DNA from: Myxococcota bacterium
GTDB lineage: Bacteria > Myxococcota_A > UBA796 > UBA2385
Assembly: GCA_044344255.1 (NCBI GenBank)
Contig: JBIJDH010000005.1
Span: 160,001 to 224,000 of the forward strand
Reading direction: 5' to 3'
Length of the DNA stretch: 64,000 bases
Part shown: one piece after another, positions 4,701 to 18,131 of the stretch
Numbering within the stretch: the stretch's first letter is position 1
Layout of the letters: each line of letters starts with the position of its first letter
Notes under the pieces: model-generated
What the model saw: only the letters and a program-made list of their open reading frames with translations
The model's database searches: none
What the model was told of the DNA's origin: nothing
Position numbers and translations under genes: made by a program

Positions 4701-5597
4701 ATGCGCGACACCCTTGCCCTGTCTGTCCTCCTCACCCTCGCCGCCCCGCTCGCTTGCTCCGGCGACAAGGCAGACACGGGCTCCTCGGGCGGTCACCACG
4801 ATGGCGGATCAGACAGCGGGGGCGCGGAGGGGGTCGCCACCACCATTCAGTTCAGCGCGGGTGCGGGGGACACCCCCTTCTCCTGCACGACCCCGCTCAC
4901 CGGGCTCGGCCTCACGGCGACCACGTGGACGCCCTCCGATCTTCGGCTCTACCTCCATGGCTTCTCGCTGATCGACGCCGCCGGGGAGGCGACGCCCCTG
5001 ATCCTCGAACAGGATGGCCTCTGGCAGGTCGAAGACGTCGTGCTGCTCGACTTCGAAGACAAGACCGGGACCTGCTCCAACGGCACCACCGACCGGAATG
5101 ACCGGGTGGTGGGCACCGCCCCCGCGGGCGAGTGGACGGGCCTCCGCTTCTCGGTCGGTGTGCCCTTTGCGCTCAACCACGGCGACGCCGCCACCGCCCC
5201 TTCGCCCCTCAACCTGAGCTCGATGTTCTGGGGCTGGGAGGGCGGCTACAAGTTTGTGCGCATCGACGGCAGCAGCACGGGGCAGCCCGCGGTGCTCACC
5301 CACATCGGCTCGACGGGCTGCGTGGCGGGGGACGACGGCGAGATCACCGACTGCGCCCAGGAGAACGTCTCGACCCTGACGATCGAGGGCTTCGACCCTG
5401 CCGTGAACACCCTGCGGCTCGATCTGGCCGGCCTCTTCGCGGGCACTGACCTCGACGCCAACGCCGACGGCACCATGGGCATCTGCATGTCCGAGCCCTC
5501 CGATCCCGACTGCGGGCCGATCTTCGCGGCGCTCGGCATCGGCTTCGGCGGCGCGGCGGCAGACCCCACCGCGCAGACCACCTTCGTGGTGGAGTGA
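4701..5597 (+). CDS. mbnP: MbnP-family copper-binding lipoprotein
   Basis: Lipobox LAC; DLRLY, LLDFED..GTC, GVPFALNH, PLN..SMFWGWEGGYKF (WxW motif), HIGSTGC, CMS....PDC. Confidence 0.9.
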   Translation: MRDTLALSVLLTLAAPLACSGDKADTGSSGGHHDGGSDSGGAEGVATTIQFSAGAGDTPFSCTTPLTGLGLTATTWTPSDLRLYLHGFSLIDAAGEATPLILEQDGLWQVEDVVLLDFEDKTGTCSNGTTDRNDRVVGTAPAGEWTGLRFSVGVPFALNHGDAATAPSPLNLSSMFWGWEGGYKFVRIDGSSTGQPAVLTHIGSTGCVAGDDGEITDCAQENVSTLTIEGFDPAVNTLRLDLAGLFAGTDLDANADGTMGICMSEPSDPDCGPIFAALGIGFGGAAADPTAQTTFVVE

Positions 5598-6751
5598 GCG
5601 TGCGGGCCGCCGCGCTCGGGCTCCTGCTGCTCGCCTGCGCCGACAAGGGGGCCCGGAGCGGTGACTCGGACGCCGCCGACGGTTGGGACTGGGGCCTCCC
5701 CGAGGGCTTCCCCGAGCCGAACGTGCCCGTGGACAACCCCATGAGCGCCGCCAAGGTGGAGCTCGGCCGGTACCTCTTCTACGACGTGCGCCTCTCCTAC
5801 AACGAGACCCAGTCCTGCGGCACCTGCCACGAGCAGGACAAGGCCTTCACCGACGGGCGCGCCCAGGCCGAGGGCTCTACCGGCGAGGCGCACCGCCGCG
5901 GCTCGATGGCCCTCGGCAACGTCGCCTGGGCCTCGGGCCTCACCTGGGCCAGCGTCTCCGTGCGCACCCTCGAGGACCAGGCGCTGCTGCCGCTCTTCGG
6001 CGAGCACCCGGTCGAGCTCGGCATGGCGGGGCACGAGGATGAGCTCCTGCGGCGCTTCGCGGAGGACGCCGGTTACCGCGCGCTCTTCGGTGAGGTGTGG
6101 CCGGAGGACGCCGCGCCGGTCACCCTCGCCCACCTCGCCCAGGCCATCGCCGCCTTCGAGCGCTCGCTCGTCACCGCCGGCTCCCCCTACGACCGCTTCC
6201 GCTACGCCGATGACCCGGGCGCGATGTCGGCCTCGGCCCGTCAGGGGATGGGGCTCTTCTTCAGCGAAGAGCTGGAGTGCTTCCACTGCCACGGAGACCC
6301 GCTCTTCACGGACTCCACGGAGACGGCGACCTCCACCTTCGAGGAGCTCTTCTTCCACAACACCGGGCTCTACAACGTGGACGGGGCCGGCGCCTATCCA
6401 GAGCGGGATCAGGGCATCTTCGAGCAGACCGGCCTCGCGCTCGACATGGGGCGCTTCCGGGCGCCGCCGCTGCGCAACGTGGCGCTCACCGCGCCCTACA
6501 TGCACGACGGATCGATCCCGACGCTCGAGCTGGTGCTCGACCACTACGCGGCCGGCGGGCGGACCGTCTCGTCGGGGGAGGACGCGGGTGTGGGGAGCGA
6601 GAGCCCGGTGAAGAGCGAGCTCATCCAGGGCTTTGACCTCGATGAGGCGGACCGACAGCGCGTGATCGACTTCCTCCACGCGCTGACCGACGAGGGCTTC
6701 CTCACCGACGCGCGCTTCGGGCCGCCCGACTCCGCCTCTCCCCCGCTGTGA
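5594..6751 (+). CDS. mbnH: MbnH-family di-heme (MauG/CcpA-like) enzyme
   Basis: Two CxxCH motifs (CGTCH, CFHCH); NPMSAAKVELGRYLFYD; FRAPPLRNVALTAPYMHDGS. GTGA overlap with mbnP. Confidence 0.9.
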   Translation: MSVRAAALGLLLLACADKGARSGDSDAADGWDWGLPEGFPEPNVPVDNPMSAAKVELGRYLFYDVRLSYNETQSCGTCHEQDKAFTDGRAQAEGSTGEAHRRGSMALGNVAWASGLTWASVSVRTLEDQALLPLFGEHPVELGMAGHEDELLRRFAEDAGYRALFGEVWPEDAAPVTLAHLAQAIAAFERSLVTAGSPYDRFRYADDPGAMSASARQGMGLFFSEELECFHCHGDPLFTDSTETATSTFEELFFHNTGLYNVDGAGAYPERDQGIFEQTGLALDMGRFRAPPLRNVALTAPYMHDGSIPTLELVLDHYAAGGRTVSSGEDAGVGSESPVKSELIQGFDLDEADRQRVIDFLHALTDEGFLTDARFGPPDSASPPL

Positions 6752-7122: not shown

Positions 7123-7827
7123 TTGGCTTCACTCGATCTCCCTCTCCCGCTCCCGCTCCCTCTCCCGCTCCCTCTCCCCGCGCTGCCGCTGCCGGAGCCC
7201 CTCGTGAGCCGCCCCTCTCCCCTTGGTCACTCCCCGATCCGGCTCTCCCAGCGCCCCGAGGTCTGGATGGTGGATGGGTTCATCGACCCCGGCACCGCCG
7301 CCGCCCTCTCCGCCCTGGGGAGGGACACCGAGCGTGCGCGGCTCGCGGAGAGTGAGCCCACGATCAACGAGACGGGCTTCTGCCTCGAGGTGCCGATCGA
7401 GGGGGCGCCCCTCCTCGAGACGCTCCGGGAGCGGATCGAGGGCCTCTTCGAGGTGCAGAGCGACGTCTACGACTGTATTCGGTATCGAAATTATCGACCG
7501 GGTGAGGGGCACCCCGCCCACCTCGACTGCTACGAGATCGAGGGGCGGGAGCTGATCGCCACGGCCCTCCTGTCCCTGCGGGACACGCCGGCCGGGGGAG
7601 AGACGGAGTTCACCGAGGTGGGCCTCGCTGTCCCTCCTCGCCTCGGTCGCCTGCTCTGCTGGTACAATCACAGCCCGGACGGCGCGCGGGACCCTCTCTC
7701 TCGCCACGGCGGCCTGCCGGTCATCGAGGGAGAGAAGGAGGTGCTCCTGTACTTCATCTACAAGCAGAAGGAGTACGCCGCCCACCGTCCCTTCGCTGCG
7801 GGCGAGACCGAGGTGGCGGGTGGATGA
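7123..7827 (+). CDS. 2OG-Fe(II) oxygenase, prolyl-4-hydroxylase-like
   Basis: YRPGEGHPAHLD (HxD), RELIATALLSL, GGETEF, DPLSRHGGLPVIEGEK (distal His and 2OG-binding Lys). Start codon (TTG) is uncertain. Confidence 0.85.
   Translation: MASLDLPLPLPLPLPLPLPALPLPEPLVSRPSPLGHSPIRLSQRPEVWMVDGFIDPGTAAALSALGRDTERARLAESEPTINETGFCLEVPIEGAPLLETLRERIEGLFEVQSDVYDCIRYRNYRPGEGHPAHLDCYEIEGRELIATALLSLRDTPAGGETEFTEVGLAVPPRLGRLLCWYNHSPDGARDPLSRHGGLPVIEGEKEVLLYFIYKQKEYAAHRPFAAGETEVAGG
7138..7179 (+). repeat. 6-bp tandem repeat encoding (Leu-Pro)7
   Basis: CTCCCN x7 at the N-terminus of the oxygenase ORF. Confidence 0.85.
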
Positions 7828-8803
7828 GACGATCCTCGTCCTCACGGCCTCGACCCTGGCCGACGCCGGGGTCGAGCGGGTCTGTGAGGCCCTGCGCTCC
7901 ACCGGGCGCCGCGTCATCGAGGTCGACTCCGCGCGCTTCCCGCTCGACACCCAGCTCTCTGTCGACCTCGATCGCGCCACCCTCCACGACGGTGAGACCG
8001 TGGAGCTCGACCACGTGAGCGCGGTCTGGCACCGGCACACCGACGTCGCGGGCGCCCTCGGGGACGCCCTTGACCCCACCTGGCGCGACGCCGTCGTCCG
8101 GCAGTCCGAGCTCGCCCTCGCCGTGCTGGCGGCCGACCTCCCTTGCCTGCACGTCGATCACCCCGACCGCACCGAGGCCGTGCCCGGCTCACCGGGCATC
8201 CTCCGCCTCGGCCGCGCGGCTGGCCTCGATGTGCCTCGCACGTTGGTCTCGAACCACCCGGGTCGGGTCCGGGACTTCGTGCGCGGCTGCGAAGGCGGCG
8301 CGGTGCGGAAGCTCCTGCACAGCTCCTCGGTCATCATCCACACCGAGGCGGGCGACGTCCGGGGCAGCACCGAGGCGGTCTCCCCCGACGATCTGGTCGA
8401 TGACAGATCCATCGCCGCCTGCCCGATGGTGTGGCAGGAGCGGGTCCCGAAGCTGCGCGAGCTGCGGGTGACCGCGGTGGGGCGCCGCCTCTTCGTCGCC
8501 TCGATCGACCCCCGCGCCTCGGTCCAGGGCGCGGTGGACTGGCGCCAGGACCCTGCGCTCGTGCGGGCCTTCGAGGTCGACACGCTCCCCCCAGCGGTGG
8601 AGGCCGCCGTCCACCGGCTGCTCGACCGCCTCCGCCTGAACTTCGCCACCCTCGACATCATCCGCACGCCCGAGGGGCGCCATGTGCTGCTGGAGGTGAA
8701 CACGCTCTCCTTCTTCGCCTTCGTCGAGGACGCGACCGGCCTGCCCATCTCCGCCGAGCTGGCGCGCCTGCTGGCCGGAGAGGTGCCCTCGCGGGCGCCC
8801 TGA
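7820..8803 (+). CDS. ATP-grasp ligase, MvdC/MvdD (graspetide synthetase)-like
   Basis: ARFP, VSAVWHR, GLDVPRTLVSN, QERVPKLRELRVTAVG, VDWR, LDIIRTPEGRHVLLEVN, GLPIS; 327 aa; overlaps the oxygenase stop codon. Confidence 0.85.
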   Translation: MDETILVLTASTLADAGVERVCEALRSTGRRVIEVDSARFPLDTQLSVDLDRATLHDGETVELDHVSAVWHRHTDVAGALGDALDPTWRDAVVRQSELALAVLAADLPCLHVDHPDRTEAVPGSPGILRLGRAAGLDVPRTLVSNHPGRVRDFVRGCEGGAVRKLLHSSSVIIHTEAGDVRGSTEAVSPDDLVDDRSIAACPMVWQERVPKLRELRVTAVGRRLFVASIDPRASVQGAVDWRQDPALVRAFEVDTLPPAVEAAVHRLLDRLRLNFATLDIIRTPEGRHVLLEVNTLSFFAFVEDATGLPISAELARLLAGEVPSRAP

Positions 8804-8861
8804 CTGGGGCCGCGCGGCGGCGCCGGTGGCCGGGGGCTGGGACCGCGAATAGTCCTTCTGC

Positions 8862-9278
8862 ATGACCCGATTGCGGCAGCCTGCCCCCGACTTCGCCTCC
8901 GCAGCGCTTCGGCACCTTCGTGACGCCGATGTCCTGGTGACGACCTCGCCGGTTCAAAGCCTACACCTCGCGGGGTTCGGCCCGGAGTGCGCTCGAAAGG
9001 CGGCTCTGACGAGGGGTTGGGCGACTCGGGCGCTCGGTCACGACGCGGCCCAACCCGAGCTTGTCGCCTGGGCGCTCGATCTGGACGGGGTCGCCGCTCG
9101 AACTGTGGGCACCCCTGCACCCGACCTCGGCTGGCGGCCGGACTGCCGCTATTGGGCCTCCGGCGCTCGAACCGGCGCCGAGGCGCGTGCGATGGTGGAC
9201 CGGTGCGCCGCGGACGCTATGCCCATCCTCGTCCGCCTCTGGGCCCAAGGGCGGTGGGCGGGAGATAACGAGTCATGA
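8862..9278 (+). CDS. HEPN-like domain protein
   Basis: 138 aa, helical. DFASAALRHLRDADVL, HLAGFGPECARKA, LGH and WRPDCRY follow the HEPN helix pattern (A..L / E...KA / H / RY). Confidence 0.65.
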   Translation: MTRLRQPAPDFASAALRHLRDADVLVTTSPVQSLHLAGFGPECARKAALTRGWATRALGHDAAQPELVAWALDLDGVAARTVGTPAPDLGWRPDCRYWASGARTGAEARAMVDRCAADAMPILVRLWAQGRWAGDNES

Positions 9279-10591
9279 CGCTTGATTATCAAGATGTCGT
9301 GCCGGAGGTGCTGCGCGTCTTCGTGGAAAGTCGGGCCTGGGGGGCGGGGGTTCGAGCCCTCATCGTGCGCACCCTGCACGGAGCGGTCCGGCTTGTGCTT
9401 GACGCTGACCATACACAGCCCGAGCACATCAGCGAGCTTGAACAGTCCCTGGTGACAGCGCTCGGACCGTGGTTTCGGGGCCCCGTGATCGCGCCGAACA
9501 TCGTCCCGGAGGGCCTGCGACGGATCGCTCGCGAGCTTTGGAGAGGAGCCGAGGAAACCGCTCGACAAAAGCCGGATTGGGCGGATCGCTGGCCGACCGG
9601 CTGGCCTGCGGAGGTCCCTGGCGCCCTCCCTGGTTCGCCGGCCATCGCGCTGGGCGGGCGAGTGGAGGCCCGTCAGGAGGCCCTGGGCAAGGAGCCCTGG
9701 GTGGCCCCGGAGCTCGGGCATGCGCCCTGGCCGATGGCGCCCCGGACCCCGCGCATCACGGCCTTTCACGGGTTCAAGGGTGGTGCAGGCCGCACCACCG
9801 CCCTGGGGATGCTGGCGTGGCTTGTGGCCGCGCGACGCGAGCGGGTTGTGTGTGTCGATCTCGACCTGGAGGCACCGGGGCTGTCCTATTTTCTCCCGGG
9901 AGATCAGCCGGTCCAGCGGGGCGTTATTGACTTTCTGCTCTCCCACGCGGCAACTGGGCAGGGGGGGGCACTTCCTGTGCAGGCGGTGCAGATTCTTGGT
10001 CAAGAGCTCCACGTCGTGGCGGCTGGAGTGGTAGACGACCTGTATGTAGAGAAGCTCAGTCGCCTGGATACGCTCCACGGCGACACCAGCCGGAGTCCTG
10101 TCCATCTCGCCCTGAATGAGCTCTTGGAGCGCATCAAAAGGGACATCAAGCCGCAGCACATCTTCCTCGATTGCCGAGCCGGTTTGCATGACTTGGCCGG
10201 CCTCGCGCTGAACGATCTGGCTCACGTCAACGTGTTTGTGGGTCGTGGTGGGGTTCAGGAGATGGGCGGCCTCTACGCCTTGTTGCGTCGACATACGAGT
10301 CGCAGGGCGTCGGACGATCAGCTCCTCTTATTCCTGCGTACCTTTCATCCGCTTCCAATCGAGCCGGACCGCCTCGACCGGCAGCGGCAGGCGCTCTTTG
10401 AGCTTTGCACAGAAGTGATCAAGCCCTATCTCCCGCAATATTCGGACCAGGGAGCGGCGCACGATCCTGCTCCCCTGGGCTACCACGACGAGGTCACTCG
10501 AGCGGACCACTTGGGGAAGATCCCGATGCTGGCCATTCAGCACCCTCTCGTGGTAGAGGCCCTGGCCCGGCTGGAGGCGCTTTGGACATGA
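9275..10591 (+). CDS. ParA/MinD-like ATPase with variant Walker A (KGGAGRTT) and N-terminal extension
   Basis: FHGFKGGAGRTT, VDLDLEAPGL, GVIDFL, FLDCRAG. ATGA overlaps at both ends. Confidence 0.85.
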   Translation: MTLDYQDVVPEVLRVFVESRAWGAGVRALIVRTLHGAVRLVLDADHTQPEHISELEQSLVTALGPWFRGPVIAPNIVPEGLRRIARELWRGAEETARQKPDWADRWPTGWPAEVPGALPGSPAIALGGRVEARQEALGKEPWVAPELGHAPWPMAPRTPRITAFHGFKGGAGRTTALGMLAWLVAARRERVVCVDLDLEAPGLSYFLPGDQPVQRGVIDFLLSHAATGQGGALPVQAVQILGQELHVVAAGVVDDLYVEKLSRLDTLHGDTSRSPVHLALNELLERIKRDIKPQHIFLDCRAGLHDLAGLALNDLAHVNVFVGRGGVQEMGGLYALLRRHTSRRASDDQLLLFLRTFHPLPIEPDRLDRQRQALFELCTEVIKPYLPQYSDQGAAHDPAPLGYHDEVTRADHLGKIPMLAIQHPLVVEALARLEALWT

Positions 10592-12195
10592 ACACGGACC
10601 TGAGTTCGGTCGAGCGACGGAGACTCCAGGGCCTGTTGGTGGATGCGCTCGCGCCAGAACATCCACAGGTCCCGGATTCGAGCATTATCGCGTCTTTCCT
10701 CCCCCTCCGTGTACACGAGACTATGTTGAATGGGCGGCGCTTCCTTGTGGAGGGTGAGCGGGGTGCTGGTAAGACGGCGCTCTTTCGCTTCATGCGAGCC
10801 TTGACACCGACCGTGTTGCCGATTGTCTTCCCGCAGGCGCCGCCGGGGCTCCGCTGGGTGACCGGCTTCGAAGACTCCAGGGCCTTTCCCAACCCGCAGG
10901 CGCTCTACGATTGGGCTGAGCGCGCTTCACCGCAGGTGATGGAGCGCGCCTGGTTCGCGCTCTTGGTGGAGACGCTGGCTCGGCACCTGCCCGACACGCC
11001 GCTCCCACCGTCAGTCGCCGACGCGCTGCGGCCGTTGAAGGAAAATCCCTCCGACGTGGCGAGGTGGGTGCTCTCGTTCGAGCCGGTGGCCGGCCTATCG
11101 ATGGCGTGGATGGACACCCTCGAGGTTTACCTCGGAGCGAGCAGCTCGACGATCATCATCGCGTATGATGATCTTGACATGATCTCGCGGGCCGCGGACC
11201 TTCGCACCGCGGGTCGGCTGTGTGGAGCGCTCACCGGGACCTGGATCACGCTGTCTCGGCGGCTCCAACGGGTACAGGCCCGGATCTTCATTCGGCCCGA
11301 TCTGGCCGATCTCACCCGCTCTGCCGCGACAGACGCGAGCAAGTTGCGGGACAGCTCAGTCACCCTCCGTTGGTCAGGGGAAGACGTGTTCCGTGCCCTG
11401 CTCCGGCGGGTGGGGAGCCAGAAGGCCCTGCGGGACTGGCTCCGAAAGGCCCCCGCGGCGGTGGATTTCAGCCGTCGCCCGACGCTGGGATGGATGCCCC
11501 CGAGCGTCCTCCCATCGGTACCCACACAGCTTTCCCTCGGTTTTGCAGCGTCGCCGGAGGGCTTGTCCGAGAGCAGCCAGCGGGCTTTTGCCGAGCGCCT
11601 CCTTGGCGCCACCATGGGGAGCGGCTCCAATAAGGGCTACACCCACACCTGGATCCTGAATCACTCCGCCGATGCGCGGGGCACCGCGCTTCCGCGCGTC
11701 ACCTTCAACCTGATTCGAAAGGCGGCTGAGCTTGCGATGGTCAGGGGTGAGGGGATCCACGGCCTTCACTTGATCGGTACCGCGCAGCTGGAGGGGGCGC
11801 AAGCGGAGGCGGGGAGACAGCGCCTTGATGAGCTGAAGGAGTTCCACCCGGTCGTTCGGCGGCTCGAAGCCCTTCGGGGCGAGTCGCTCCCGAAGCCGTT
11901 TGGAGAGGCGGCCGCTCTCCTCGGCCGTCATCCTGTGGAGGAGGATGCGCTCGGTACGGACGGGGAGGCCGTGATCCGGGCCCTGATGGGGATCGGTGTC
12001 CTGGTACGTCGGCCACCGTCCCGGCGCCGCCCCGGCTCCGTGCCGTCGAGTGACCCCGCCTCGGAGGAACAGCGGATCGATCTCCCCGACCTCTTTCGGA
12101 AGGCCCTCGACTGTGGGCGGAAGGGCGGGCCCTTGCAGCTCTCTCGACCGGAGTCGACGCACGGGGGGCGCGACCGAGGGCCCGGCGCCGGATAA
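10588..12195 (+). CDS. P-loop ATPase (STAND/KAP-like) of unknown function
   Basis: ATG 10588 overlaps the previous stop codon. Walker A VEGERGAGKT, Walker B IIIAYDDLD, RIFIRPD, LRWS, WILNHSAD....PR. Confidence 0.8.
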   Translation: MNTDLSSVERRRLQGLLVDALAPEHPQVPDSSIIASFLPLRVHETMLNGRRFLVEGERGAGKTALFRFMRALTPTVLPIVFPQAPPGLRWVTGFEDSRAFPNPQALYDWAERASPQVMERAWFALLVETLARHLPDTPLPPSVADALRPLKENPSDVARWVLSFEPVAGLSMAWMDTLEVYLGASSSTIIIAYDDLDMISRAADLRTAGRLCGALTGTWITLSRRLQRVQARIFIRPDLADLTRSAATDASKLRDSSVTLRWSGEDVFRALLRRVGSQKALRDWLRKAPAAVDFSRRPTLGWMPPSVLPSVPTQLSLGFAASPEGLSESSQRAFAERLLGATMGSGSNKGYTHTWILNHSADARGTALPRVTFNLIRKAAELAMVRGEGIHGLHLIGTAQLEGAQAEAGRQRLDELKEFHPVVRRLEALRGESLPKPFGEAAALLGRHPVEEDALGTDGEAVIRALMGIGVLVRRPPSRRRPGSVPSSDPASEEQRIDLPDLFRKALDCGRKGGPLQLSRPESTHGGRDRGPGAG

Positions 12196-12216
12196 CGAGA
12201 CCGTCGGAGGTCGCCC

Positions 12217-14394
12217 TTGCCCCACACGACCCTGCTCCTGTCCCTCCTCCTCGCCTGTGGGTCGGGCAAGGTCGGCCGAGATGAGGCCGACGGGGCCGAC
12301 GGCGCGGATGGCGCCGACGGTGCCGACGGTGCCGACGGGGCCGTGGGAGACAGCGGCCTCAGCGGAGACAGCGGCTCGGCGGATGGCTGTCCGACCCTCA
12401 CCCTCGCCGTCGCGCCCCGGCCGGCTCAGCTCGAGGGCGTGATGGCGGAGTGGGCGGTCGAGGCCGACGCTGTCGACGGCGAGCGCATCACGGTCGAGGT
12501 GGCGGCCGACTCCGCTGGCGACGGGGTGTCTGTCGCGGGCACCCTCGCGGCCACGGTCGAGGCCGGAGTGGCCACATTCTCTGAGGTGGAGCTGGTCGGG
12601 ACCGGTGAGGTCACCCTCCACCTGCGCGCGGCGGACTGTGAGCCCGGGCTCGCGGTGGGGCCGCTCGTGGTGGGCTCCTCGATGCGCTTCGAGCCGGTCT
12701 ACCTGCCCGGCGGGCGGGTGGGCTCCGGGTACTTCGAGCTTCGAGGCTGGGACGCGGTCGAGGCCGGCGCCCTGCCGCCGGGCCTCGACTGGGCCGCCGG
12801 CGCGCTCAGCGGCCTCCCAGAGGCCACGGGGGCCTATTCATTCGAGGCGGCGGCCTCGGAGGGGAGCGCGGTTATTCGGTACGGGGTCCAGCTCCCGGTC
12901 TTCCCGAGCGACGACGCCCTGTCCTCCGCCCCGGCCGACCTGTCCCTGCCCGGCCCCTACGACGCGGACAGCGTGGAGCTGAGCATCCCGAGCGTCTCGA
13001 CCAGCCGCGGCACGCTCTCGGGGGTCGCGGTTCGCGTCGCCTATCCCACAGACCCCGACGGGGCGATGGCGGAGGGCCCCTTCCCGCTCATCGTCTTTCA
13101 CCACGCCGCCCACAGCCCGTCGCAGATCTACGATGATTATACGGAGCTGCACGGCCACTGGGCGACCCACGGCTACGTGGTGGCGAGCGTCGATGGGAGC
13201 GCGCTCGTGTCCTCCTCCCAGAGCTGGGACAACCTGAGCGACATGAGCGCGGTCCAGCTCGCGGGGCGGGAGCTGTTGCTCGCCGAGAGCGCCGACGAGA
13301 CGACCGCCTTCGCCGGGCGGATCGATCCCGACCGGGTCTTTGTGGCCGGTCACTCCCGCGGGGGTGGCGCCAGCCTGATCTCGCTCTGGCGAGAGCCCGC
13401 GCTGGCCGGGGCCCTCTGCTTCGCCCAGGTGAGCCCGCTGCAGACGCCCGATCCCGACTGGGGAGACCCCGAGGAGAACGGCGACCGGCCCTTCCCGGAG
13501 CGCCCCCTCCTGTTCCTCGCCGCCGGGGACGACCTGGACGAGCCCTGGCCCCTCCCGCACTCGGCCTATGACCAGAACAGCGGCCCCACCGTATTTGTCG
13601 TCGAGCATGGCACCAACCACGAGTGGGCCTATGATGAGGGCACCCCCGGCTGGACCACGAGTGACTCCGACATCTCCTGGGGTGAGCGACACGCCCTCGA
13701 TCAAGCCTGGTCTACCGCCTTCCTCGAGCGCTTCGCGCGGGGCGATCTCGATTACGAGGCCTCCCTCTTCGGCGCCCCGGCCCTGAGCTCGACCCTGAGT
13801 GACCGCGGGGTGAGCACGAGCGGCCGTCGTTACCTCGACAGTGAGCTGCTCGTCGATGACTTCAGCGGGGAGACTGGAGAGGACCTCCTCGGCGGTGTCG
13901 TGGAGGGCGGCGGCCTCGACACGAACGAGAACGCGCCACCCTATACAGACGGGCTCGTCGCCGCCGGCCGGGGGAGCACGCAGGTCGAGCGGATCGCCGA
14001 TTGGACCCCCGCCCGTCGCCTCGGCTGGGGGGAGGAGGAGGCGAGCCTGCGCTTCAGCCTGTCCCCGGAAGGGGGGGGCATCGACCTCCGGGAGCAGCGT
14101 GCGCTGCACCTCCGCCTGTCGGCACCCTGCGCGCCGCCTCCCGGGGACTGTGAGGAGGTAGAGCCGTCCTTGTCGGTCACCCTCATCGACGCCGACGGCG
14201 CCGAGCTCTCCGTAGAGGCGGAAGAGGGGATGGGCGCGCTGGGCGTCGTCGGTCGGCACTGGGGGCAGGTCGTCCTCCCCCTCGACAGCTTCCTGCCGGT
14301 TGACCTCTCGCGGGTGGTGGCGATCGAGCTCCGCTTCGCGGCGGCCGCCCCTCCGAATGACGAGCTGTGGGTGGACGACCCCCGCCTCGAATGA
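12217..14394 (+). CDS. Lipoprotein with Ig-like domains and an alpha/beta-hydrolase (chlorophyllase/PAF-AH-like) domain
   Basis: Lipobox LLAC; GALPPGL Ig-like segment; GPFPLIVFHH, WATHGYVVAS, nucleophile elbow GHSRG; beta-rich C-terminal domain. Confidence 0.75.
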   Translation: MPHTTLLLSLLLACGSGKVGRDEADGADGADGADGADGADGAVGDSGLSGDSGSADGCPTLTLAVAPRPAQLEGVMAEWAVEADAVDGERITVEVAADSAGDGVSVAGTLAATVEAGVATFSEVELVGTGEVTLHLRAADCEPGLAVGPLVVGSSMRFEPVYLPGGRVGSGYFELRGWDAVEAGALPPGLDWAAGALSGLPEATGAYSFEAAASEGSAVIRYGVQLPVFPSDDALSSAPADLSLPGPYDADSVELSIPSVSTSRGTLSGVAVRVAYPTDPDGAMAEGPFPLIVFHHAAHSPSQIYDDYTELHGHWATHGYVVASVDGSALVSSSQSWDNLSDMSAVQLAGRELLLAESADETTAFAGRIDPDRVFVAGHSRGGGASLISLWREPALAGALCFAQVSPLQTPDPDWGDPEENGDRPFPERPLLFLAAGDDLDEPWPLPHSAYDQNSGPTVFVVEHGTNHEWAYDEGTPGWTTSDSDISWGERHALDQAWSTAFLERFARGDLDYEASLFGAPALSSTLSDRGVSTSGRRYLDSELLVDDFSGETGEDLLGGVVEGGGLDTNENAPPYTDGLVAAGRGSTQVERIADWTPARRLGWGEEEASLRFSLSPEGGGIDLREQRALHLRLSAPCAPPPGDCEEVEPSLSVTLIDADGAELSVEAEEGMGALGVVGRHWGQVVLPLDSFLPVDLSRVVAIELRFAAAAPPNDELWVDDPRLE
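12286..12342 (+). repeat. 9-bp tandem repeat encoding (Ala-Asp-Gly)6 linker
   Basis: GCSGAYGGN x6 following the lipobox. Confidence 0.85.
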
Positions 14395-14402
14395 GCGGTT
14401 GC

Positions 14403-17400
14403 CTATCGGTGGGGGTTGGCGCCCGTCCAGCCCGGAACCAGGACACGCGACAGGCGGAGCGGGTCTATCACCCCCTCCCGCGCCATCCAGGCCCGGCCCA
14501 CGGGGTTCGGCTGACCGAGGTGGTCGAGGGTGATCCGCGCGGCGGCGGCGTGTAAGGCCATGTCGGCCTCATCGAAGGCGCGCACCGCGCTGTCGAGCAG
14601 GCGGAGGCCCTCGTCGGCTCGGCCAGACAGGAAGGAGAGGGCGCCCTGGATGGAGAGCGAGAGGTTGGGGCCCCAGGGGAGATCTTCCGCGGCGAGGCCG
14701 CGGGCGTCACGCTGGATCGCCTTCCGGAGCGTCTCTGCCTCCGTCCCCCGGACGGTACCGGCGTCGAGGCGGGTCAGCGCGACGCGGGCTCGGAGGTGGG
14801 TGGCCTCGATGCGCACCATCTGCAATCGCAGCATCTGGGCGTTCTTCATGCGCGGCCAGGCCTGGCTCAAGCGGTCCCAGGCGGCCTCTGGCTGTCCGAG
14901 GTAGAGGTCGAGGTGCACGCGGGCGATGAGGTGCATGTAATGCTGCGTGTGGAAGCCCGACTCGCCGCTCCACAGGCTGATGGCGTCGTCGGCCTGGCGG
15001 CGGGCCTGTCCGGGCTGGTCGAGCGCCAGCCAGGCGAGGTTGGGGAGGCCCGTGGACAGAGAGGCCGCGCCGAGCATGTTCCCGCGCTCGCGTGCCTCTT
15101 CGAGCAGGGCCGGGAGCCGCTGCCGCATGTGGCTGAGCTCCCCCAGATAGGCGGTGGACCACATGCCGAAGATGTGGGCGTTGGTGAGCTCCCAGGTCAT
15201 CCCGGGGCGGTGGGCGCGGAGCAGCGCCTCGGCCGCCGCGGCGCTGTCGCGGGCCTCTCGGAAGCGTGCGGAGAAGAAGGTGCTGGCGCTCGTGCAGATG
15301 AGGGTGATCGCTGCTTCGGCGGGATCGGCCGTGGCCGCGGTGATGCGGCGGGCGGCCTCGAGCGCCTCGGCGGCGCGGCGGCGGTTGGGGGCGCCTCCCT
15401 CGCTCGAGATGAAGGCGGCCTCTGTCCCGAGGGCGCGGGCGACCCGCGTGGGCTCGCCGCAGTCCAGGGCGAGCTGAGTGTATCGGCACTGGAAGACCGC
15501 CGAGCGGACAGAGTCCACCCAGCAGAGGCCGACCGCGGTGGCCCAGCAGGCGTCCACCCGCTGGAGGGTGGCGGGCTCGAGGTCCTCCGCCCGCCGCTCG
15601 CGGTAGCCGAGCCCGCGGAAGCGCAGCCGCAGCCGTTGGAGCACGAGGGCGGCCAGGGCGGCGGTGGGATTTCCGGGGAGGGAGAGATCCATCCCCTGGA
15701 GCACGCTCTCGAGGGTGCGCAGGCCCTCCTCGAGGTGCCCGCTCCGGAGCCAGTGTTCGGCCGCCTGTCGCTGGAGCTCGGCCCGGCGCGGATCATTCGG
15801 GGCCTGTCGGGAGAGGTCTCTGGCGGCCTCTGAGAAGGCGACGGCGGCCTCTCCGCCGAGCCCAGAGGCGGCCAAGGCCTCTGCCCTGCGACGGAGGAAG
15901 TGCCAGCGGGCAGCCCCCTCCGGCAGCAAGCGGAGCACGAGCTGGAACTGCTCGGCGGCGAGGTGGAAGGCGAAGGTCGACATCGCCTGCTCCGCTGCGA
16001 CCTCGGCCTGGGCCTGGGCCAGCTCGGTCTGTCCGCTCTCGAGGTAGTGACCGATCAGGTGGCGCGGATCGGCGCCCTCCAGGGTGACGAGGGAGCGGGC
16101 GAGCTCGGCGTGGAGGGCCTGGAGCGCCGGCGTGTCGAGGCTGGCGAGCACAGCCTCGCGGACCGCGTTCTGGAAGAGGTCGAGGCGGGCCTGGCCGCCC
16201 GAGATGACCCGCCGGAGCAGGTGCGCGGAGAAGAGCTGGGCGGTGACACGGGGGGCCTGGTCGCCCACCCGGGCGGCGGCGGTCGCGGCGGCGGCGTCGA
16301 GCGGGCGGCCCGCGACCACCACCACCTCGAGCAGGCGTCGGGCGGGGGCGGGCAGCGCGGCGACTCGGGCCCGAAGCAGGTCTTGGAGGGAGGGCGGCGG
16401 CCCGCCGGCGCGGGCCCGGAACGAGCGGGTGAGCTCGGCGGTGAGCAGCGGCGAGCCAGCGCCCTCGGCGACGAGGGTGGAGATGGGCACGGGCGCCTCT
16501 CCCTCGTCGGAGAGCAGGCGGTCGACCAGCACGCGGGCCTCGTCGTTGGAGAGCCGGCCGAGCTCGATTCGAACCTGGGGCGCCTCGGGCATCCCGGGGG
16601 CGTCGGGCTGGAGGGCGCCGATGAGCGCGCCCTCGGCCCGGTCTTCGGTCCGGTACGAGAGGACGATGAGGACCGGCGGCGCGTCCGGCGGGCGGATCAG
16701 CTCGCGGAGGGCGAAGGCGCTGTCGAGGTCGCCCCACTGGAGGTCGTCGATCCAGAGCACGATCGGGCGGTCGCGGCCGAGGGCGCCGAGGAGCTCGCGG
16801 AGGGCCTGGAAGGCGCGGCGCCGCTGCTCTGTGGGCCCGCCGTGCCGGTGTTCGTCGCTGTGCCAGGGGATGTCGGGGACGCCGGTGAGCACGGGGAAGA
16901 GGCGGACCAGCCCCGGGGCGGAGGGCGGCACCGTGCGCGTGCGCAACAGGGGCGACATCTGGAGGAGGTGGCGGCTGATCCCGTCGATGAGCGCGTCGAG
17001 GGCCTGGAAGGGGACGTGCTCGGCGGGGTGGCAGCGGCTCGTGAAGGAGAAGGCCGTGCCGGCCTGCCGCAGCTCGTCGAGGAAGTGCTCCACCAGGGCA
17101 GACTTGCCCATGCCCGCGGCGCCGCTGAGCTGCACGAGCCCTGCGCCGTCACGACGGACGGCGCCGAAGGCCTCGTGGAGGCGGGCGAGGGGCTCGGCTC
17201 GTCCGACAAAGATGGGCTCGCCGAAGGTGGGGGCGGCGGCGAGGTCGGGGCTGCGGGAGACCCCGAGGGCGGCGCGGATGCCGATGGCGTCCGGACGGCG
17301 GCTGGGATCGGGGTCGAGGAGGGCCCACACGAGCTGCTCGAGCTCCGGGGGGACCTCCGGGGCGACCTGTCGGAGGGGGACGAGGTCGCGGGCGTCCTTC

Positions 17401-18131
17401 GCCGCCAGCACGTCGATGAGCTGGCCCTGGAAGGGCTTCTTGCCGGAGATGGCCTCGTAGAGCACCACCCCGAGGGCGTACCAGTCCGAGGCGGGCGAGA
17501 GGGCGGTGCCCCAACCTTGTTCCGGTGCCATGTAGGCGATGGTGCCCACCACCTTGCTCAGCCCGGCGAGGTCCCGGGCCCGCGGTGTCAACAGGGTGAC
17601 CACGCCGAAGTCGAGGATCTTCAGTCGGCCTTCGCGGTTGACGAGCACGTTGCTCGGCTTGATGTCGCGGTGGAGGTGGCCGGTGCGGTGCAGCGCGTCG
17701 ATGCCGTCTACGAGCTGGCCGGTCAGGGAGCGCAGCGCGTCGAGCTCGACGGGGTTGAGCTGGGGATCGGCTTCTCCAGCCTCTCGTCTGCGCTCCACAC
17801 CCCGTCGGACATGCTGGACGAAGGTGCGTCCGTCTACGAGCTCCATGGTGAAGAAGCACTGACGGCCGTGGGTCTTCAGCTCGTAGAGCGTGACGAGATT
17901 GTCGTGGACGATCCCGGCCAGCGCTCGAAACTCCTGCTTGAGGCGATAGATCTCTTCGCCTTCCGGCCAGTGGAGGGTCTTGGCGGCCATACGCCGCCCG
18001 GTGGCGTCTTCGACCTCGTGCACCACGCCCATGCCGCCGGAGCCGAGGCGCCGGAGGATGCGGTATTCACCATTTCCGTCGAGAGTTTCCACGCTCGGAA
18101 GAATATGTCCCGGCGGTGCTCGCCCGGCCAA
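14403..18131 (-). CDS. Ser/Thr protein kinase + AAA/STAND-like NTPase + helical repeats
   Basis: LGSGGMG, AAK, HRDIKPSN, DFG, YMAPE; FVGR, Walker A GAAGMGKS, Walker B WIDDLQW. Exact start is uncertain. Confidence 0.9.
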   Translation of the reverse strand: MAGRAPPGHILPSVETLDGNGEYRILRRLGSGGMGVVHEVEDATGRRMAAKTLHWPEGEEIYRLKQEFRALAGIVHDNLVTLYELKTHGRQCFFTMELVDGRTFVQHVRRGVERRREAGEADPQLNPVELDALRSLTGQLVDGIDALHRTGHLHRDIKPSNVLVNREGRLKILDFGVVTLLTPRARDLAGLSKVVGTIAYMAPEQGWGTALSPASDWYALGVVLYEAISGKKPFQGQLIDVLAAKDARDLVPLRQVAPEVPPELEQLVWALLDPDPSRRPDAIGIRAALGVSRSPDLAAAPTFGEPIFVGRAEPLARLHEAFGAVRRDGAGLVQLSGAAGMGKSALVEHFLDELRQAGTAFSFTSRCHPAEHVPFQALDALIDGISRHLLQMSPLLRTRTVPPSAPGLVRLFPVLTGVPDIPWHSDEHRHGGPTEQRRRAFQALRELLGALGRDRPIVLWIDDLQWGDLDSAFALRELIRPPDAPPVLIVLSYRTEDRAEGALIGALQPDAPGMPEAPQVRIELGRLSNDEARVLVDRLLSDEGEAPVPISTLVAEGAGSPLLTAELTRSFRARAGGPPPSLQDLLRARVAALPAPARRLLEVVVVAGRPLDAAAATAAARVGDQAPRVTAQLFSAHLLRRVISGGQARLDLFQNAVREAVLASLDTPALQALHAELARSLVTLEGADPRHLIGHYLESGQTELAQAQAEVAAEQAMSTFAFHLAAEQFQLVLRLLPEGAARWHFLRRRAEALAASGLGGEAAVAFSEAARDLSRQAPNDPRRAELQRQAAEHWLRSGHLEEGLRTLESVLQGMDLSLPGNPTAALAALVLQRLRLRFRGLGYRERRAEDLEPATLQRVDACWATAVGLCWVDSVRSAVFQCRYTQLALDCGEPTRVARALGTEAAFISSEGGAPNRRRAAEALEAARRITAATADPAEAAITLICTSASTFFSARFREARDSAAAAEALLRAHRPGMTWELTNAHIFGMWSTAYLGELSHMRQRLPALLEEARERGNMLGAASLSTGLPNLAWLALDQPGQARRQADDAISLWSGESGFHTQHYMHLIARVHLDLYLGQPEAAWDRLSQAWPRMKNAQMLRLQMVRIEATHLRARVALTRLDAGTVRGTEAETLRKAIQRDARGLAAEDLPWGPNLSLSIQGALSFLSGRADEGLRLLDSAVRAFDEADMALHAAAARITLDHLGQPNPVGRAWMAREGVIDPLRLSRVLVPGWTGANPHR

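Follow-up and report, generated by a model that had tools for sequence, protein, structure and literature searches.

The three genes and their arrangement

The locus consists of three open reading frames on the forward strand, here called A, B and C, which encode proteins of 138, 438 and 535 amino acids and lie within a stretch of 64,000 nucleotides (the whole of the DNA analysed, called the window below, to which all coordinates refer unless a relative's locus is named). Gene A (8862..9278) encodes a HEPN-T protein resembling Pfam family PF05168 (PDC-M28A / PA-HEPN1), a predicted RNase effector; gene B (9275..10591) a KGGVGR-variant ParA/MinD ATPase of the ConB2 type with an extra N-terminal domain (PDC-M28B); and gene C (10588..12195) a predicted ORC-CDC6/STAND-like P-loop ATPase, Sll1717-like (PDC-M28C). 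As an earlier note made from the sequence alone had described, and as the ORF coordinates bear out, the genes are joined by two 4-nt ATGA stop-start overlaps, at 9275..9278 (A/B) and 10588..10591 (B/C); in many relatives B and C form a single polypeptide, while the 4-nt overlap of A with B recurs at 43 of 84 related A-B junctions. A longer version of C, starting at a TTG at 10405, was considered but rejected because the C proteins of relatives begin near 10588.

The cassette starts 58 nt after a gene for an MvdD-like ATP-grasp ligase and ends 21 nt ahead of an alpha/beta hydrolase gene, and each of its genes is present in the genome as a single copy. At its ends there are no notable terminal repeats, and neither a sigma-70 promoter nor a terminator was found above chance. 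Positions 8780-12260 are also covered by one contig in each of two further public runs, which differ at 6 letters and show not a single gap; the triad is therefore not an assembly artefact, although these runs are near-identical and their independence from the source is uncertain. One RNA contig (341 nt, depth 2.9) maps on B, which falls short of proving transcription.

Gene A

None of the three proteins scores above the cut-off of any Pfam family, and their assignment draws on structural models, other profile libraries and conserved residues. The model of A has the HEPN-T fold, the same as that of PF05168 (AF0298, TT1696, ST0689 and the sacsin HEPN domain), though no solved structure with a sequence relationship to A was found. 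The match to PDC-M28A (E 1.4e-6) is weak and partial, covering residues 9-51, or about a third of the protein.

Among 71 relatives of A, whose mean pairwise identity is 29%, G38, E42, K46, R96, Y97 and the loop histidine H60 are kept without exception; the codons of H60 and R96 are at 9039-9041 and 9147-9149 (both +). The earlier note had taken the sequence RALGH as a possible HEPN motif, and this must be ruled out, since although RALGH is present in A its arginine (R56) is kept in only 9 of the 71 relatives. Nor is there a conserved His after R96-Y97, so that the canonical Rx4-6H is absent. What A does share with the HEPN-T family, which likewise has no Rx4-6H histidine, is an alternative His, placed between the second and third helices, together with a basic residue. 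This combination has been proposed as an active site for the HEPN-T class, some domains of which are thought to be non-catalytic (PMC3710099). A non-canonical RNase site around H60 and R96 is plausible in A because E42, K46, H60, R96 and Y97 are kept in all 71 relatives; however, A lacks Rx4-6H and the related HEPN protein AbiV is reported to use such a segment (10.1101/2024.05.05.592566), so that the alternative site is a putative one. When the earlier note called nuclease activity uncertain it was looking at the wrong motif, an alternative His and a separate Arg being conserved.

Gene B

Gene B scores 135.7 bits against NF047398 (KGGVGR-variant ATPase), over the curated cut-off of 90, and matches PDC-M28B with an E of 2e-39, while its model matches ParA/Soj/MinD structures with a best E of 3e-8. 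The deviant Walker A motif, KGGAGRT (9776..9796, +), occupies residues 168-174 and follows an N-terminal extension of 155 residues; K168 is the signature Lys and R173 replaces the P-loop Lys, so that both peculiarities pointed out in the earlier note (Arg for the second Walker A lysine and a long extension) are real ones. Conservation in relatives is nearly absolute, with R173 kept in 71/71, K168 in 70/71, and the sensor residues D195 and D197, P201 and the Walker B residues D299-x-R301-x-G303 in 71/71 each. An Arg in Walker A and a PG following sensor-1 have been described as marks of the ConB2 clade (10.64898/2026.10.19.760177), and B has DLDLEAPG at 195-202, with PG (P201-G202, nearly invariant in the relatives) following the DxD sensor in just this way. 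In contrast, B falls far below the cut-off of every ParA/MinD equivalog model, and features of ParABS and MinCDE systems are missing: Arg replaces the Lys of KGGxGK[ST], and the neighbours scanned include neither parB nor minE.

The N-terminal domain of B (approximately residues 1-100, 9275..9574, +) is, from its secondary structure, a small alpha/beta domain of order helix-strand-strand-helix-helix, and it is the fastest-evolving part of the protein, with a mean pairwise identity of 20% as against 39% for the ATPase core. It would correspond to the “iNTase” of HINPO (see below), a nucleotidyltransferase-like fold without the catalytic Asp, but the structural likeness is weak: in Atlas structure rows the TM scores against Pol-beta/MNT clusters are 0.60 and 0.52, neither of which reaches the naming bar, and other folds score 0.47-0.58. 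There is no conserved catalytic Asp pair on strand 2, and a profile of the domain finds no match to solved nucleotidyltransferases.

In one clade of B-C fusions the same N-terminal slot looks BolA-like. Eight of 21 fragments give a weak match to Pfam BolA (E 0.0015-0.1), all eight coming from fused forms, and 11 of the 16 PDB matches to a profile of this clade are BolA-type domains (best E 0.0013) if UVI31+ and a SufE-like entry are counted as such, which is our assumption. When the N-terminal profile of this clade is compared with that of the unfused clade, the two fail to align (probability 0.1). Examples of these BolA-like N-termini lie at L133:5632-5931, L141:616-915, L145:5323-5622 and in L146, L147, L150, L157 and L174; as we take the BolA motif to run, its His is lacking in them.

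Gene C

Gene C matches PDC-M28C with an E of 2.4e-37 and reaches 74.4 bits against NF047389 (Sll1717), just below the curated cut-off of 75. Its Atlas neighbours include Sll1717-like, ORC-CDC6-like (13% of members) and nSTAND1 (19%) clusters as well as ParA fusions of 890-920 aa, while matches among solved structures related to it in sequence are to the P-loop only. The Walker A motif G56-K62 (G56, G61 and K62), the Walker B motif Y193-D194-x-L-D197, R236 and the pair P369-R370 are each kept in 20-21 of 21 relatives (G56, G61, K62, D194, D197 and P369-R370 in 21 of 21), and we read these motifs as equivalents of STAND sensor-1 and GxP. On profiles, motifs and Atlas neighbours taken together, C is classed as an ORC-CDC6/STAND-like ATPase. 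It has no visible repeat sensor domain and no visible N-terminal effector domain, and the profiles of B and C are not alike. A basic C-terminal tail is found on C and most of its relatives, and conservation along C is highest towards the C-terminus (46%). With this, the three domain calls of the earlier note (HEPN fold, ParA/MinD ATPase and STAND-like ATPase) have all turned out to be right.

Conservation of gene order

Gene order was followed from two sides. An A profile built from 36 sequences yielded 28 genome loci, mostly in Myxococcota records, and in 26 of these B and then C lie directly downstream; the other two end at a contig edge, 124 and 189 nt past the A match. Members of a wider A profile, which drew partly on genes upstream of B, match PDC-M28A on their own in 26 of 28 cases and PF05168 in 13 of 28.

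From the side of B, the sample comprised 40 stretches of same-phylum genomes, each surrounding a match to NF047398 (three matches over the cut-off being left out and one under it included), together with the best 80 of 528 metagenome loci, a choice that is biased because these were ranked by likeness to B; 6 of the 40 genome stretches are apparently the same contigs as loci found through A. Among the resulting 118 distinct B loci, C is downstream in 72, as a separate gene in 46 and fused to B in 26, and a HEPN-like gene stands directly upstream in 67 of those 72. As to the five exceptions, three have less than 500 nt upstream before the contig ends, and two show other ORFs there. A further 7 loci have A but end too early for C, and 39 have neither A nor C, being other KGGVGR architectures or cut. 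Co-conservation of the three genes, which the earlier note had proposed checking, is thus borne out from both directions.

Two kinds of irregularity may be recorded here. Operon copies at L057, L061, L064, L113 and L151 appear frameshifted, through either decay or sequencing error, the first three of these being the only such cases among the 26 full loci found through A. The ORFs that occupy the HEPN position upstream of B-C fusions are at L099:6783-7214 (-) and L189:3322-4737, and from reading them by eye we take them to be transposase-like and IscB/HNH-like, respectively.

Base composition and genomic context

The GC3 values of A, B and C are 0.76, 0.73 and 0.79, whereas the remaining 43 genes of the window have a median of 0.93; they are the three lowest among the 46 window genes (called with a crude in-house caller), which confirms the excess of A/T-ending codons that had been visible by eye in the earlier note, and in the genome as a whole, with 5,741 genes called, they rank in the bottom 2.0-4.2%. 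Once 6 cut or broken loci are set aside, the triad's GC3 is under the flank median at every one of the 22 related loci compared, although in one only marginally so. Distribution is patchy: a search of 22 host-family genomes (completeness 68-96%) found C in 2, and in a quick tree of ParA (114 rows, 5 short cores omitted) the B of the window clusters with rows of another class and order rather than with the row of its own family. Flanks vary between loci and are mostly housekeeping genes. Patchy spread, low GC3 and differing flanks at most loci together form the pattern of a mobile conflict cassette, and on these grounds horizontal acquisition, as the earlier note had supposed, is likely.

Nevertheless, the neighbour content of the nearest clade argues against defence-island enrichment. 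When 110 of 136 listed neighbours in 23 loci (L038-L061) were scanned with PADLOC models at E 1e-8, there were 8 matches, a raw count without a background rate, of which only two look like real defence genes, these being helicases at L043 and L049; the remainder are kinases, one HTH protein, one HEAT protein and one short weak match. With 2 of 110 neighbours defence-linked, the island enrichment of homologues that the earlier note had put forward for checking is weak in this clade. The scanned neighbours of the triad in the window itself include no defence genes, and among 15 neighbouring genes scanned against Pfam there is no ParB or replication gene, in keeping with what had been noted before. 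A single-sequence pattern search of viral contigs, which reaches close relatives only, found no relative of B, and among the public-run contigs compared there is no joint that cleanly skips the triad, nor does any close genome span the locus.

Some observations on individual loci belong here. At L043:4024-8935 and L049:6397-9716 the triad comes after a helicase operon on the same strand (BrxHI-like in the one case, SNF2 HmaA/BrxHII-like in the other) with several unannotated genes. At 12230-12260 of the window, a single contig in each of the public runs X18 and X19 joins the start of the hydrolase gene to one common other sequence over a match of only 31 letters, a hint that in related strains the slot of the triad is filled differently. 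At 7497-8000, two runs contain a strain in which differences are numerous and concentrated in the genes for the 2OG-Fe(II) oxygenase and the ATP-grasp ligase, but in the triad only 2 differing places are listed; such clustering beside a near-unchanged triad suggests local recombination.

Relation to known systems

The earlier note could match the triad to no named system. PADLOC, however, returns PDC-M28A, B and C in order, and the architecture is that of HINPO, so that the triad is almost certainly a member of the HINPO / PDC-M28 family. It has already been catalogued twice, once under each name, and what is new is a further, unfused copy. The literature searched contains no experimental test or phenotype for HINPO or PDC-M28, although subscription papers could hold one.

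HINPO was described in a computational study by Li, Burroughs and Aravind (10.64898/2026.10.19.760177) as a HEPN gene followed by a ParA with an inactive nucleotidyltransferase domain and then an ORC-CDC6/STAND ATPase, with the ParA and ORC/CDC6 parts fused in some cases, the N-terminal domain of ParA evolving fast, and the system being enriched in multicellular bacteria. The triad shares the upstream HEPN, the ConB2-type ParA, the downstream ORC-CDC6/STAND ATPase and, in its relatives, the B-C fusion, a likeness of architecture and motifs as these are given in the preprint's main text; its nearest relatives are mostly Myxococcota, consistent with the multicellular enrichment reported there, while the copy in the window keeps its three genes separate. 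The PDCs, 145 in number, are predicted candidates whose discovery rested on their lying inside BREX, DISARM or type I RM loci (Payne et al., 10.1101/2024.01.29.577857); the main text of the PADLOC-DB 2.0.0 paper leaves M28 unnamed and notes that many defence systems occur solo. Adjacent A, B and C match the three PDC-M28 HMMs in order (weakly and partially in the case of A), but unlike the founding candidates the present copy stands outside any other defence system.

More distant comparisons can be made. HEPN-MNT toxin-antitoxin pairs may be akin to the triad in that the gene next to the HEPN begins here with a putative MNT-like fold (a weak likeness); the domain of B differs in lacking the catalytic Asp and in being fused to a ParA ATPase, and a third gene for an ATPase is added. 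HepS of Gifsy-1 (PMC13043305), which itself senses a phage protein, and AbiV (10.1101/2024.05.05.592566), which is held by an RNA, both use Rx4-6H, unlike the triad, and neither is described in these reports as needing two ATPases. The dyad of MAE_18760 with a ParA/Soj protein (PMC3710099) also sets a HEPN beside a SIMIBI ATPase, with nucleotide-dependent control proposed, but it has only two genes and its HEPN belongs to another family that keeps Rx4-6H.

Proposed mechanism and alternatives

A defence role for the triad, whether anti-phage or anti-plasmid, is likely, in agreement with the conflict role assigned to it by the earlier note. As to mechanism, the reading favoured here, to which we would give a probability of about 0.6, is that the two ATPases gate A as a HEPN RNase effector, so that an infected cell is arrested or killed. 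A would dimerise and cut host RNA, probably tRNA or rRNA, at the site of H60 and R96. B would keep A silent, perhaps through its nucleotidyltransferase-like N-terminal domain, in the manner of MNT-fold antitoxins with HEPN toxins. C, which would work with B because the two are so often one polypeptide (26 of 72 loci), may sense invader DNA or protein and change its nucleotide state; this change would flip the ParA switch of B, and A would be freed or activated, with dormancy or death as the outcome of infection.

HEPN toxins are usually paired with MNT-fold antitoxins, and it is by this analogy that the N-terminal domain of B might be what holds A silent, a suggestion that is at best tentative. 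How far A has diverged correlates about equally with the divergence of the ATPase core of B (rho 0.77) and with that of the N-terminal domain (rho 0.74), and there is therefore no special sequence support for the latter in this role. More broadly, and somewhat doubtfully, HINPO could be viewed as a HEPN-MNT pair stripped of its nucleotidyl-transfer chemistry and placed under a two-ATPase switch, with a dead MNT-fold leash on the ParA, a STAND-like trigger and His60/Arg96 as the putative RNase site; the leash slot would be exchangeable, because one fused clade has a BolA-like domain there.

The authors of HINPO read the same system differently, favouring nucleotide sensing by the N-terminal domain of ParA where the reading preferred here makes that domain the holder of the HEPN. 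In the model put forward in their preprint (10.64898/2026.10.19.760177), C acts on the DNA of the invader, where its binding nucleates multimers of ParA and replication is blocked by them, with A as no more than a backup effector. The conserved basic tail of C, the high conservation of its C-terminal part and the B-C fusion, which marks the ATPases as a tight pair, all fit such a scheme, but DNA binding by C is predicted only, and A is kept in 67 of 72 loci, with three of the five exceptions cut by contig ends, which is more than would be expected of a dispensable backup; we regard this model as unlikely. It is less probable again that the triad serves no anti-phage purpose and is a stress-response or addiction module, i.e. 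an ATP-gated toxin-antitoxin that slows translation under stress or maintains itself. Solo insertions amid housekeeping genes would suit a module of that kind, but we know of no reason to expect a STAND-like third gene in a plain toxin-antitoxin pair, which counts against it. A HEPN and ParA/Soj dyad has indeed been proposed as a toxin-antitoxin pair (PMC3710099); on the other side, PDCs were chosen because some of their members sit inside BREX, DISARM or type I RM loci, and many defence systems are themselves solo (10.1101/2024.01.29.577857).

Finally, B might be a positioning or partitioning ATPase outside any conflict, which positions a cargo, with A as a non-catalytic adaptor. This would accord with the ParA/MinD fold of B and with an A that has no canonical HEPN motif; yet no ParB or replicon gene is present among the scanned neighbours, no ParA/MinD equivalog model reaches its cut-off, the distribution is patchy and low in GC3, and the His, Arg, Glu and Lys of A are conserved, all of which makes such a function very improbable.

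If the more doubtful view of HINPO as a HEPN-MNT pair under a two-ATPase switch is correct, B would be the first ParA with an Arg P-loop shown to gate an RNase. The discovery itself is a modest one, but the triad provides an intact and compact test case that bears on whether HEPN-T domains with an alternative His are RNases, on the role of ParA proteins with Arg in the P-loop, and on whether the N-terminal domain of B is a toxin holder or a nucleotide sensor, and the alignments pinpoint the residues to mutate.

Other genes of the window

Immediately upstream of the triad, at 7123-8803, the genes for the 2OG-Fe(II) oxygenase and the MvdD-like ATP-grasp ligase, both below equivalog cut-offs, form a possible peptide-modification pair, and the ligase has a paralog on contig C54. 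Further upstream, at 4701-6751, is a pair comprising MbnP and a di-haem cytochrome c peroxidase (which we take to be MbnH-like), probably concerned with copper handling. Two genes downstream of the triad, at 14403-18131 (-), is a gene for a 1.2-kaa fusion of a Ser/Thr kinase with an AAA_16 ATPase; proteins of this type are common in myxobacteria.
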